In this document: positions 17,763 to 63,853 of the stretch, in pieces
How the letters are laid out: each line of letters starts with the position of its first letter
How positions within the stretch are numbered: position 1 is the first letter of the stretch
Assembly: GCA_044892525.1 (NCBI GenBank)
Contig: CM097885.1
Span: 2,048,001 to 2,112,000 of the forward strand
Direction: 5' to 3'
Length of the DNA stretch: 64,000 nucleotides
Source of the DNA: Schmidtea polychroa
Taxonomy: Eukaryota
Notes under the pieces: model-generated
What the model was told of the DNA's origin: nothing
The model's database searches: none
The model's input: only the letters and a program-made list of their open reading frames with translations
Program-made: the position numbers and the translations under genes

Positions 17763-18324
17763 TTTAATCAATGCTGCCACCAATTAATCATCACTTTATA
17801 CTTATTGCCATTATTATTATCATCATTTTTATTATTATAATTTTATTCTTTTTAAATTTAAAAAAATATTGTATGAAATTGTATTCTTTACAAATTTTGA
17901 TTGAATAATTTTCGTTTTACTCTGAAATAAATTAATTTAATTTATTTATCTCTTGTTCAAAAGTCTGAATGAGGAATCCAAAAAAGTTAATTAATAAGGA
18001 AATCAGAGGGAAATGAAATTGGGTTGGATTTAAAGTGAGTTTGTAAGGTGGTAAAGTTGAGTTTTATTTTATAGAAATAATGGAAACCTTTCTAGAAATT
18101 ACTGGGACACAGCCAGGGTTTTGTCAGTTAGAGGGGAGTGTTTCAGGGTTCGAGCTTTTCCCTTAGTTCTTTTCCGAGATCCTTGCGCATGACTAGGACT
18201 ACATTAATTATTTGTAAAATAATTATTAAAAAATAATTAAAAACCACAGTGACCTTCAACTGACCTTAAATGACCTTGAAATGACATCAATAGGCTTAAA
18301 ATAGCCTTATAAATCATTAAAATC

Positions 18325-19896: not shown

Positions 19897-37070
<17,174 letters not shown>

Positions 37071-37680
37071 AGTGAACCGTTTATTTTGACACTAGTGCAA
37101 ATCGCAAGCCGTTTAATTGTTTCACTAGTTGCAGTTAATATAATTGATGTAATAAAACAAATGCTAGATTTATAATTACCGATGAAAACAAAACGGACAA
37201 GTAATATCTATGTGAGACAGACGCGTCAAACGCAAGGCATTCAAGCAGAATTGATAGGCAGCATGAAGCAAGAATGAGAAATTTTCTCCAGTCGCATTGC
37301 GATTCTTTGGCAGTCTTTAAAATGGAACTTCGACACGTTTGGAAATTCTGGATATTAGTTATCTCTAACAAAATCTTTTAAGGAAAGATAGATAAAAAAT
37401 AATTTTTAGTTGAAAAATTTAATTTTTATGTAAAATTCTCCCATTATTTGAAAGCCAATCGAAAATTTGAACTAGAGTTTCCAAAAATCCAGGGGCTCAG
37501 CTATTTTGTTAACGGCCTTGAAAGCATTACCAAAGCATTACCTCATCCCTGCTTTCTATACCAGATCCATCGTAACATTCTATAGCCATTTCCACTTGAA
37601 TTATCGAGAATCACTTTCCTCTATTTTCAAAGTCATTTGCTCTTTCCATCTACTTACTTATGTACAATTCCTATTCTTAA

Positions 37681-57463: not shown

Positions 57464-58504
57464 AATGTAGTGCCTGTTGAACCTCACTGATATTTATACA
57501 GTTACCATTTAATATTCTTTTTTTTATTTGTTTAAGAGTAATAATTTTATATTTAACTGAATGCGAGTGTAATTTGTTTTAATAATGGCGATTTTAAAAT
57601 ATACAAAAAACATGCCTCCTATACTCAGACTAGAAGCAACAAACAAAATGCCATCTTATTCCGATTTAGAAGTAACAAACAAAATAATTTCTAACTACAA
57701 AAAGCAATTCAATCCACAACGACAAGCTGAATATCAACGAATACGTCAATACAATTTCCAATAACGATGCCAACTTTATGATGGAAGATGTTAAATGCAA
57801 TAAAATTGGGAACAATGTTGAATTTACAATTTACTTATTTTTCCAATTATTAGCTTGCTGCGCGGGTAGCCCCGGCACGACAGTTAATTTTAATTTGAAA
57901 TAATATTATTATAAGAACTTTTTTATTCCAATTTCACCACTGACTTTTTTTTCATTGTATGTATTAAAAAGAACTTGGAGTATATAAATCATTAAATATA
58001 TCGATGTTTTTGATATTCACGAATTTTCTGCACTGCCTTCACTTGAAAAGGGCAATACATTGATATATTTACTGATTTATAGCCTTCAAAGTCTTTAATA
58101 AATAAAATAATATTGATTTTAAAATTATCCAACAATATATTTAAAATTATCTAAAAATATATTTAAAATCATCTAAAAATCTGTTTAAAATAAGTATAAA
58201 AAAACAAAAGATATTGTTTATGATAATTTAGAAAACTAAAACTTAAATAATTACAAAATAATATAATTTGAACTAATTGATTTACTCATATCAGATAAAT
58301 TCTTGTCGTGCTAAAGCCTTTTCCAAATATTTTCTCATATGAGAAAACCACTCAATAAATAATAATAATAATAATTCTAATGTAAATTTAATTAATTCCT
58401 TAGTAGTAGGATTGGAGCTCCCCAGACCAGGAGCTCCCCGCGCCACATATACCCCCTCCCCCCCCCCGGGAAAAAAATTTTTTTTTTTAATTTTTTGTTT
58501 TAAT

Positions 58505-59530
58505 TAATTGGCCTGGCGGGCTCACACTTTTTTTCATCCCAAAAATTAATGTTCTCGTTAACAGATTTTATTGACCGATACCTCATCTTAAAGCACAGTC
58601 CAAGACCTTTCGAATGAGCTATAGGTATCATATATATCTTTAATAGTTTTAATGTTATTAACAATTGATGACCACCATCTTTTCAACGTTAAATTATTAT
58701 TATTTTCCAAAATATTATTAATTGGCCTGGCGGGCTCACACTTTTTATCATCCCAAAAATTAATGTTCCTACCAACGGATTTTATTGGACGATACCTCAT
58801 CTTAAAGCTCAGTCCAAGACCTTTCGATTGATCCATAGAAGGTATCATCATCATTAATATTGACAAAGTTATTAACAATTGATGACCACCATCTTTTCAA
58901 CGTTAAATTATTATTATTATTCAAAATATTATTAATTGGCCGGGCGGGGACATACTTTTTCTCATCCCAAAAATTAATGTTCCCATTATCCGAATTTATT
59001 AATCGATAGCTTATTTTGAAGCGTAGTCTAAGACCTTTCAATTGAGCCATAGAAGGTATCATCATCATTAACATCGGCAAAGTTATTAAAGTTTTACCGA
59101 GACCATTTTTCAAGGTCATTTATTATTTTCAAGGTCATTTAATTTTTTTTTCAAGGTCAAGGTCAAATTTTTAATAAAAGGTCAAGGTCATTTATTATTT
59201 TCAAGGTCATTTTTTTTTTTTTTTTTTTATAATTATGTGGCCGGGAGGGCCCCTACTTTTTTTCATCCCAAAAATTAATGTTCCCGCCAACAGATTTTAT
59301 TAATCAAACACTTATTTTAAAGCCCAATGCAAGACCTTTCGAATGAGCTAATGAAGGTATCATCATCATTATTATTGACAAAGTTATTAACATTTTACCA
59401 AAAATCATTTTCAAGGTCATATAATTATTAATTGGCCTGGCGGGCCCCTACTCTTTTTCATCCCAAAAATTAATGTTCCCATTATCCGACCTTTCGAATG
59501 AGCCATAGAAGGTATCATCATCATTAATAT
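58505..59530. repeat. 214-bp tandem repeat in the Maverick terminal region (about 5 full or partial copies)
   Basis: taattggcc..catcccaaaaattaatgttc at 58505, 58719 and 58933, with partial copies near 59236 and 59429. Confidence 0.9.
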
Positions 59531-59800
59531 TAACAAAGAGAATGACTCACCCAATGACTCACCCAACGATGTCTAATATTTTTAGAACGATGACTCATCA
59601 AGGTCAAGGTCAAATTTTTAATAAAAGGTCAAGGTCATTTATTATTTCCAAGGTCATTTATTTTTTCAAGGTCATTTATTTTTTCAAGGTCATTTAATTT
59701 TCAAGGTCATTTATTATTTTCAAGGTCATTTATTTTTTCAAGGTCATTTATTTTTTCAAGGTCATTTACTTTTCAAGGTCATTTAATTTTCAAGGTCATT
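59110..59800 (+). promoter_or_regulatory. Array of about 19 YCAAGGTCA motifs plus three TGACTCA motifs
   Basis: Counted by eye; clusters at 59110-59210, 59411 and 59598-59798; TGACTCA near 59543, 59555 and 59591. Regulatory role is inferred. Confidence 0.6.
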
Positions 59801-59841
59801 TATTAAAATAATTATTATTTTCTAAGTTTTTAGTTTCTAAG

Positions 59842-59913
<72 letters not shown>

Positions 59914-61020: not shown

Positions 61021-61485
61021 TTAATTAAGTGATAATAAAAAATCTAAAAATTCTTTTCCTTCAATTATTGATTTAATTTCAGATATGATATTATCAACTA
61101 TACTTTTGTAATCAATATTTTTTATTCCAAGAATTACTATCTTACCGCTAGCGAATATATTTACACACATAGGGTTATATTTTATATATCTCAAAGCTGG
61201 AAATAATTCTGGTTCATAAAAGCATGGTATTAATTTAGCTAATTTATTTAAATTACAAGAAAAACCTATATCGGAAGTTACGGTTATCGATTGTATTTCT
61301 AAATCATAAACATTATATTCACTAGCTTTGATTATTTCCTTACACCCCATAATTCTACATTTACCAGTTTTGAAATATATTATTGGATATTTATTACTTC
61401 TATTGATAAGTTGTTGTGGTTTCCCTATTGGAAATACCATTTTTGATACATCAGTTTTTGCCCTGTAATTTATATTTGAAAGCAT
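61021..61485 (-). CDS. TATA-binding-protein-like protein encoded by the Maverick
   Basis: Two TBP-like repeats: IIYFKTGKCRIMG and FYEPELFPALRY..VNIFASGKIVILG (compare TBP YEPELFPGLIY..LIFVSGKVVLTG). Confidence 0.85.
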   Translation of the reverse strand: MLSNINYRAKTDVSKMVFPIGKPQQLINRSNKYPIIYFKTGKCRIMGCKEIIKASEYNVYDLEIQSITVTSDIGFSCNLNKLAKLIPCFYEPELFPALRYIKYNPMCVNIFASGKIVILGIKNIDYKSIVDNIISEIKSIIEGKEFLDFLLSLN

Positions 61486-61589: not shown

Positions 61590-62228
61590 ATGGAATTACG
61601 AAATGATGCAGTATACCAAATCGTTGGTCCAAGTGGTAGCGGGAAAACTTTATTTGTTTGTAAATTACTAAAATCAAATTTGTTTAAAACAAAATTCAAC
61701 AATATTTATTGGCATAGGGGCGCCGACGAAGAACACGGATTGACGCAATCAAGTTTCTGTCAGTTGAAAAACATGAAAATAGTAAAGGGCTTTGATAAAA
61801 ACTGGTCAAGTCGTTTGAAGAAAGATGATGTCATCATTATCGATGATTTGTATCAAGAAGTCAATAAAGAAAAGGACTTTAATAATTTATTCACAAAAAT
61901 CAGCAGACATGTTGGTGTAACAGTTATTTTCATAACACAAAATCTATTTCATCAAGGTGGTGCACATCGAACACGTAATTTAAATGTACAATATTTAGTT
62001 ATTTTCAAGAATCCTAGAGATGCAACTGTCATTGATTTTCTTGGACGACAAGCATACCCTAATAACCGTAATTTTCTTATCAGTGCATTTCAAGATGCCA
62101 CGAAAATACCGCATGGGTATATATTTCTCGATTTCACACAACAATGCCCTGATGATATACGGGTAAAAACAGATATTTTCAACCCAAAAGGTGCCATGGT
62201 ATATAAACAAAGTTCAAAACAAAGTTGA
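61590..62228 (+). CDS. A32/FtsK-like DNA packaging ATPase
   Basis: Walker A GPSGSGKT, Walker B VIIIDD, SRH, ITQNLF, RNLNVQYLVIFKNPRD, PHGYIFLD. Confidence 0.93.
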   Translation: MELRNDAVYQIVGPSGSGKTLFVCKLLKSNLFKTKFNNIYWHRGADEEHGLTQSSFCQLKNMKIVKGFDKNWSSRLKKDDVIIIDDLYQEVNKEKDFNNLFTKISRHVGVTVIFITQNLFHQGGAHRTRNLNVQYLVIFKNPRDATVIDFLGRQAYPNNRNFLISAFQDATKIPHGYIFLDFTQQCPDDIRVKTDIFNPKGAMVYKQSSKQS

Positions 62229-62241
62229 AAACATATAAATC

Positions 62242-62736
62242 ATGTTTTCAAAAACAAGGATATCGGGTAAAAAACAACCAAAAGTTCCACCAACAACTAG
62301 TTATACTCCATCTAAAGATCTTATTACAGAAAATTTTCCTGCAATGAATCTTATTTCGAAAAATCCTAAACCTAAACCTAAAAGTAAAACCACTAAGAAA
62401 GTAAAAGTTGTTAAAAATCATCGGAGTTTCCCGTTTTTCAATACATTGTTAAAGGCACCAAGTATGAAAAGAAACAGTATTTTGCAATCATTTCCAAATT
62501 ATGTTGTCGATGATTTACTCGATATTATACTTAAAGTAGTCAAAGGCAAGATTAAAATCAGTAAATCTAAAAAGCAATTATTGAGTAAACATAGGAAACC
62601 TTTGCTATCATTAGTAAATAATAAAAATCGTCAACAAATGAGAAAAATTATATATAAACAACAAGGGGGATTTATCGGTGCATTGATACCTTTAGCAATA
62701 TCATTATTAGGTGGAATAATAGGAAGTCGATCATAA
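62242..62736 (+). CDS. Basic Maverick virion-type protein with a C-terminal GG/F site and amphipathic helix
   Basis: Lys-rich; ends QQGGFIGALIPLAISLLGGIIGSRS. Confidence 0.7.
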   Translation: MFSKTRISGKKQPKVPPTTSYTPSKDLITENFPAMNLISKNPKPKPKSKTTKKVKVVKNHRSFPFFNTLLKAPSMKRNSILQSFPNYVVDDLLDIILKVVKGKIKISKSKKQLLSKHRKPLLSLVNNKNRQQMRKIIYKQQGGFIGALIPLAISLLGGIIGSRS

Positions 62737-62797: not shown

Positions 62798-63853
62798 ATG
62801 GAGAAGATTTGGACGAACCCGGAAGACGAAGCCGGTTTTGGTGGAGTGGCAAAATTAAGGAAAAGAGTTCCGAATTCGAAAAAGGAAACACAGAAGTGGT
62901 TATCAGACCAGCTTGCGTACAGTTTGAACAAACCAATGCGGAAACGATTCCCAACAAGAACATATAAAACATATGGAATAAATGATTTATGGCAAATGGA
63001 TTTGATGGAGATGATACCCTATTCGAAAATTAACAATGGGTATAAATATATTTTAACATGTATTGATGTATTCAGTCGGTTTGCCCGAGCAATACCCGTC
63101 AAGGCAAAATCTGCAGATGAAATGTCCAAAGCTGTTAATCATTTATTTAAAGATGGACATCCTAAAAACTTGCAAACTGATTTAGGTATTAATATTATTA
63201 TTTTTATTATTATTATTATTATTTTAGGTAAAGAATTCTACAACAGTAAAGTCAAGCAAATCCTCAATAAATTGAAAATAAACCATTACTCAGTACATTC
63301 TCAATACAAAGCTGCTCATGTTGAAAGATTTAACCGAACTTTGAGAGATAGATTAAAGAAATTATTCGTGCATCAAGGTAATAAAAAATGGGTATTGGTT
63401 TTACCAAAAATAATAACCAGTTATAATCACTCATCACATCAAGGACTGAATGGATTAAGGCCGATTGATATCACGTCAAAAACAATCTATTCTAAAAAAC
63501 CTGAAAAAATTACAAAACCGAAATATAAAGTAGGTGACCATGTTAGAATTAGTAAAATTAGTGCATCACCATTTATTAAAAATTTTGATACGAATTGGAG
63601 TGATGAAGTCTTTGTAATTTCAAAAATAAATACTAAACAGAATCCTGTAATGTATGTCATCAAAGACAATGATAACAATATTGTACAAGGAAAATTTTAT
63701 GAACAAGAATTACAAGTTATTCCTCCCCCAAAAGTATTTAGAATTCAGAAGATATTGAAAACTAAAAATAAAGGCAAGGATAAACAATACTATGTCAAAT
63801 GGCATGGTTATCAAAACCCATCATGGATATCAGAAAAGGATCTAGTAAAGTGA
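62798..63853 (+). CDS. Polinton retroviral-like integrase with C-terminal chromodomain; probable 42-nt intron at 63186-63227
   Basis: WQMDL, CIDVFSRF, LQTD-G-KEF, VERFNRTL, YN..H, KVGDHVRI, FYEQELQ, YYVKWHGY..SWI; first ATG at 62798. Confidence 0.95.
   Translation: MEKIWTNPEDEAGFGGVAKLRKRVPNSKKETQKWLSDQLAYSLNKPMRKRFPTRTYKTYGINDLWQMDLMEMIPYSKINNGYKYILTCIDVFSRFARAIPVKAKSADEMSKAVNHLFKDGHPKNLQTDLGINIIIFIIIIIILGKEFYNSKVKQILNKLKINHYSVHSQYKAAHVERFNRTLRDRLKKLFVHQGNKKWVLVLPKIITSYNHSSHQGLNGLRPIDITSKTIYSKKPEKITKPKYKVGDHVRISKISASPFIKNFDTNWSDEVFVISKINTKQNPVMYVIKDNDNNIVQGKFYEQELQVIPPPKVFRIQKILKTKNKGKDKQYYVKWHGYQNPSWISEKDLVK

Follow-up and report, generated by a model that had tools for sequence, protein, structure and literature searches.

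A probable lineage-restricted intron in the integrase gene of a Polinton/Maverick element from Schmidtea polychroa

Introduction

Is the 42-nucleotide, ATT-rich insert that interrupts the integrase gene of a Polinton/Maverick element in Schmidtea polychroa an intron, a lesion, a tolerated addition to the protein, or an error of assembly? Intact vertebrate Mavericks are reported to be intronless (PMC8097293), protist surveys assume the same of Maverick/Polinton-like genes (PMC10120064, PMC8547959), and such genes are called in surveys with prokaryotic gene finders (PMC8097293, PMC10120064). Here, we examine the insert within a single stretch of 64,000 nucleotides (contig CM097885.1, positions 2,048,001 to 2,112,000), referred to below as the window. 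The original prediction, based on these letters, read the insert as a spliceosomal intron, perhaps gained by duplication of an AG|GT proto-splice site with microsatellite filler, whose retention might act as a splice-controlled off switch.

Results

An interrupted integrase gene in a Polinton/Maverick

The features of the locus are collected in Table 1. The window ends inside the element, whose right end and polymerase and capsid genes lie beyond it. The end motif AGTAGTAG at 58402 is one of three matches in the window, compared with 0.5 expected, and the other end of the element is beyond the window. Among the genes that accompany the integrase, the basic 164-amino acid reading frame has tblastn matches in 32 of the relatives' loci and the TBP-like gene is present in 6. 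The left terminal region (58503–59804) contains a tandem repeat of 214 nt together with 18-nt repeats rich in TCAAGGTCA, and words akin to these left-end repeats occur near 18250–18285.

Table 1. Coordinates in the window of the insert, the integrase gene and the features discussed with them
Feature	Position	Strand	Basis
Putative phase-1 GT-AG intron, ATT-microsatellite-like, 42 nt	63186..63227	+	Sequence and comparison with relatives
TTTAGGTA at the 5′ junction, AG|GT context	63181..63188	+	
TTTAGGTA at the 3′ junction (acceptor and exon start)	63223..63230	+	
Integrase, 5′ portion (putative exon 1), encoding catalytic D68 and D128 and stopping within the Gly130 codon	62798..63185	+	Pfam rve, residues 62–134
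Integrase, 3′ portion (putative exon 2), encoding catalytic E176 and a C-terminal chromo-like domain	63228..63853	+	Chromo E 5e-4, below curated cut-off
Probable left end of Polinton/Maverick, AGTAGT end motif	58402..58409	+	Motif as in PMC8097293
TBP-like gene of the same Polinton	61021..61485	-	PF00352, E 1e-15
Packaging ATPase, Pox_A32-like, unbroken ORF	61590..62228	+	Pox_A32 match above cut-off
Basic 164-aa ORF, no Pfam match	62242..62736	+	Conserved beside the integrase in relatives
Host doublecortin-like kinase gene, reference for the size of introns and the style of splice sites	19897..37091	-	DCX and Pkinase matches

The integrase is of the retroviral DDE type (Pfam rve, E 5e-8; best fold match foamy-virus integrase, E 2e-15), and its catalytic residues D68, D128 and E176 are intact; over 148 sequences the two aspartates are invariant and the glutamate nearly so. 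Many related copies are seen in the contigs of four public runs. Of the 40 best-supported differences among these copies (185 were found), 25 are synonymous, where 26% would be expected (p ~2e-6), and 27 lie at third positions, with the differences pooled over runs and the excess spanning both sides of the insert rather than being assignable to single insert-bearing copies. This excess supports purifying selection among copies, which favours function without proving it for those copies that bear the insert. The single apparent stop among the differences is part of a three-base change in one codon. The amino acid differences at codons 92 and 113 match the ENA proteins P0135 and P0340, and thus the subfamily of these two proteins appears to be present in the runs.

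Ends, frame and composition of the insert

The insert splits the codon for Gly130 after its first base, two residues past the second catalytic aspartate, D128. It runs from GTATTA to TTTTAG, with a U2-type GT donor and a pyrimidine-AG acceptor present, and its body consists of ATT units. The open reading frame at 62798–63853 crosses it without a stop, placing 14 additional residues between QTDLG and KEF, and the other two frames of the insert contain stops. The original description, of an in-frame, stop-free (ATT)n insert of 42 nt running from GT to TTTTAG with TTTAGGTA at both junctions, is accurate. Likewise, the claim that its removal restores the motif agrees with the homologues: the flanking residues fit the TDxGxEF motif that is unbroken in 119 of the 120 full-length homologues listed (of 2279 found), the remaining one being without the region, and none of those 120 has extra residues at the site.

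The GT and AG ends have a joint background of about 0.002 and are therefore not a matter of chance. A length divisible by three is expected by chance about once in three, and the stop-free frame follows from the ATT composition, because pure (ATT)n is stop-free in every frame. The window contains one exact match to the insert and 12 near matches, the latter being plain microsatellites.

Relatives broken at the same codon

Looking for the insert in related copies, as the original prediction suggested, revealed a shared start in one relative and breaks at the same codon in three others. P0340 (ENA), whose identity across the first 129 residues is 91%, reads TDLG-INIIIFII, and its first nine residues after TDLG are those of the window read-through; its tail beyond the ninth shared residue, a possible mis-join, was left out. 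Because the start is common to P0340, the insert is not private to the window copy. Among shorter proteins, two further lineages, 74–75% identical to the window protein, are represented by P0138 (JGI) and P0341 (Logan), which are 93% identical to each other and both end TDLG-KIII-stop, and by P0139 (Logan), which ends TDLG-N-stop. One small lesion in an unbroken exon could give the N-stop tail, through a 2-base insertion, but no such lesion gives the KIII-stop tail. The C-terminal halves P0136 and P0137 sit on contigs as long as those of P0138 and P0139, respectively, and it is on this equality of size that the pairing of the halves rests. Across all four proteins the position of the break is kept and its content and frame vary. 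The breaks are known at the protein level and are compatible with GT donors and AG acceptors, which we infer.

Since the relatives of 74–75% identity reach a stop codon, the in-frame read-through of the window copy is incidental, and both this and the ATT composition led us to reject the notion that the frame is special. Also rejected as support for an intron were P0141, which ends TDL, is sister to the unbroken P0006 and likely reflects a nonsense change, and P0164 (52% identical), whose ending at TDLGK is explained by a simple lesion or the end of a contig.

Other rearrangements were seen at or near this site. In P0135 (91–92% identical), a deletion from the insert site joins the QTDLG codons to those of the last 14 integrase residues; it is either a real derivative or a mis-assembly and has no bearing on the intron. 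In contig L062 (~262–1009), an integrase gene (73% identical) is cut just after the codon of the same catalytic aspartate by an unrelated, GC-richer sequence that starts with TG and is possibly an LTR; this contig is labelled as a bacterial metagenome-assembled genome (MAG) and looks like eukaryotic contamination. Six Polinton-type integrase contigs (L060–L065) were found in prokaryotic genome bins (GTDB), a placement that is probably due to binning contamination.

Unbroken relatives and the history of gain

Of 339 related proteins, 286 reach the site and 271 of these are unbroken there, and no intron was found at the site in the 54 site-reaching loci among 65 JGI and GTDB DNA loci (best identity 73%), a set that excludes the contigs of P0138 and P0139. 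The IMG/VR protein search returned no relatives, none of 60 matches to the junction pattern in IMG/VR encodes an integrase, the phage collection gave no match, and the 50%-identity library gave distant relatives only. That relatives are mostly unbroken implies that the intron would have been gained, within a shallow clade, and that the ancestor would have been intronless.

Of the 40 rows of the tree, 35 are unbroken full-length relatives and 5 are broken. The five broken rows form two groups inside one 7-row clade with support of 83/90, and the best tree also nests the unbroken P0004 and P0005 among them. A tree that keeps the five broken rows in one group is worse by 1.9 log units (p-AU 0.44), such that a single origin is not rejected. 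The intron may have been gained once, with a loss or a weak misplacement in the tree, or twice in parallel.

The junction repeat and the ATT content

The duplication proposed at the outset draws on the 8-nt repeat at the two junctions. However, four of the eight letters of TTTAGGTA are the AG|GT consensus, host intron ends paired in the integrase exon context give an 8-nt repeat in 4 of 49 cases, and one of seven host introns examined has a 7-nt repeat. Because the repeat is near expectation from the splice consensus and AT-richness, an origin by duplication is unsupported; birth of the insert by duplication or by break repair is possible. The finding that relatives are mostly unbroken is in line with gain at an AG|GT proto-splice site, and AG|GT is present at the site in 7 of the 43 unbroken loci that have the motif.

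As for the microsatellite filler, the ATT content is better read as host-type slippage inside an intron. The AAT and TTT interruptions of the insert recur in host microsatellites (the 12 near matches), and two long host introns have large ATA/AAT arrays near a splice site. The ATT content would then be secondary, arising by slippage of the same kind as fills host introns. An ATT microsatellite at 59844–59904, in the non-coding left part of the Polinton, indicates that such arrays grow within the element.

Host introns and contig evidence

The seven frame-checked introns of the doublecortin-like kinase gene measure 1074, 50, 44, 47, 50, 2995 and 50 nt; five of them thus fall between 44 and 50 nt, and the insert has 42 nt compared with 44 for the shortest. 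Their donors are as weak as that of the insert, one of them being GC, and an exon-final AG precedes five of the seven. One 50-nt stretch of this gene, at 20161–20112 (minus strand), is probably a GC-AG intron, for which an alternative GT donor would give 41 nt.

The read-side data are contigs of 4 of 23 public runs, whose kind was guessed, placed by a tool that masked 63181–63233, so that the zero depth over these positions carries no information. No 42-nt skip occurs among the 15 joints listed of 62 in these masked contigs. In run X10, guessed to be RNA, a contig extends 38 letters beyond 63177, and the following two begin 20 letters ahead of 63234. Given overlaps of 30 letters, a spacer of 28 letters or more must separate 63177 from 63234, compared with 14 if the form were spliced or intronless, and we infer that this geometry suits a molecule with the insert rather than a spliced one. 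Were X10 DNA, this would further support the insert being general; were it RNA, its main transcript would be unspliced, which would weaken the intron reading or hint at retention.

A structural model of the read-through protein

An AlphaFold model of the 351-residue read-through, built from a deep alignment, has a mean pLDDT of 92.8, with residues 132–141 alone disordered: the RNase H core is folded confidently and the insert is looped out. (A first fold from 25 sequences reached a pLDDT of 61 and was uninformative.) The model is compatible with a read-through protein that folds with the insert in place, which is possible. The QTDLG before the insertion point aligns with SDQG of the foamy-virus integrase, and the insertion point adjoins what we take, by matching the numbering, to be the equivalent of Ala188 in that enzyme. 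In the foamy-virus integrase, Ala188 contacts target DNA (PMC4005685). Retention of the insert would likely spoil strand transfer, as would retention of almost any intron. The idea of an off switch made by 14 hydrophobic residues is unsupported: the broken relatives of 74–75% identity hit a stop instead.

Discussion

Comparative evidence points to the insert probably being a real, lineage-restricted phase-1 spliceosomal intron. The shared start in P0340, the same-codon breaks, purifying selection and the similar size of host introns all agree with this central element of the original prediction, whereas the masked contig data contain no spliced form. Within a shallow clade of elements that otherwise lack introns, an AG|GT site would have received one, in a single event or in two parallel ones. 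Splicing by the host would take out the 42 bases and yield a normal integrase, and unspliced transcripts would be dead ends rather than a selected switch, the dead end taking the form of a stop in the relatives and, in the window copy, of a 14-residue loop beside the position that contacts target DNA.

It is worth considering whether the intron, gained perhaps twice independently at one codon, is instead mostly retained, as the X10 contigs (RNA only by guess) might hint, with splicing serving as a gate through which host or tissue controls integration. This would be the Polinton counterpart of the third intron (IVS3) of the Drosophila P element, the model for the off-switch idea, in which retention of a transposase intron yields an inactive or repressor protein (PMC7776569). 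Regulation of IVS3 is proven, through silencer proteins and piRNA (PMC7776569); for the window insert it would be hypothetical, and we consider such a gate unlikely.

An alternative of low probability is that slippage or repair inactivated the gene by creating the insert, which then spread through a non-autonomous lineage dependent on intronless elements for its mobility, with GT and AG as by-products of a duplicated AGGT. The preponderance of unbroken proteins (271 of 286), the lack of an intron in all 54 DNA loci and of a spliced form in the contigs of the four runs, where the insert was masked, would fit such a lesion, as would the other lesions that the site has taken (the ending of P0141, the unrelated insertion in L062 and the deletion in P0135). 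On the other hand, copies show a synonymous excess on either side of the insert, the start of the insert is common across 9% protein divergence, and in lineages 25% divergent the same codon is broken with both halves still conserved.

More doubtful still is that the insert is never spliced but tolerated, the 351-residue protein working with its 14-residue loop. The open frame, the confident model with disorder confined to the loop, and the X10 contigs (RNA only by guess) are all in line with this. Yet relatives broken at this codon run to stops, the full-length homologues listed (120 of 2279 found) carry no extra residues there, and the loop would start right after QTDLG, beside the presumed Ala188 position. 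Finally, a microsatellite read mis-joined at TTTAGGTA has very little to recommend it: the sequence is of low complexity, the genome is rich in ATT arrays, and exactly the insert stretch was masked when the contigs were placed, leaving it without direct read support, but an independent ENA assembly (P0340) has the same insert start and other lineages are broken at the same codon.

It is informative to view the probable intron in light of known systems. The element resembles animal Polintons/Mavericks (PMC8097293) and adintoviruses (PMC8502044) in its AGTAGT end, its rve integrase with a chromo-like C-terminus and its A32-type ATPase; unlike in intact vertebrate Mavericks (PMC8097293), its integrase gene is interrupted. 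Introns are known in the Gypsy-like DDE integrase genes of Ginger1, which carry one to four, mostly GT-AG (PMC2836005), although Ginger1 is a simple cut-and-paste element and the window gene lies in a virus-like element with a packaging ATPase. Spliceosomal-type introns also occur within the maverick-polinton-like elements of dinoflagellates (PMC11957031); those introners, however, are mobile, repeated protist families, whereas the window insert is a simple repeat with one exact copy in 64 kb. In being short and AT-rich, with a repeat common to the adjacent exon, the insert is like the new introns of Daphnia pulex, which often have repeats of 4–12 nt and among which parallel gain at one site is frequent (PMC4202315). 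The Daphnia gains are in host genes and polymorphic in populations, and 25 of 27 introns whose length is a multiple of three contain stops (PMC4202315); in contrast, the window insert is stop-free and its gain is older, with relatives 25% divergent. Our literature search, mostly of open-access papers, brought up no report of an intron in the integrase of an animal Polinton, and passages of other Polinton papers mention no spliceosomal introns in element genes.

Surveys that rely on prokaryotic gene finders would score insert-bearing copies as broken, an error that the database proteins P0138/P0136 and P0139/P0137, each split in two, seem to exemplify. An intron whose sister lineages, ~25% divergent, are intronless would represent a datable gain in a virus-like element and would show the reliance of such an element on host splicing; if retention were regulated, it would also constitute a new control point on integration.
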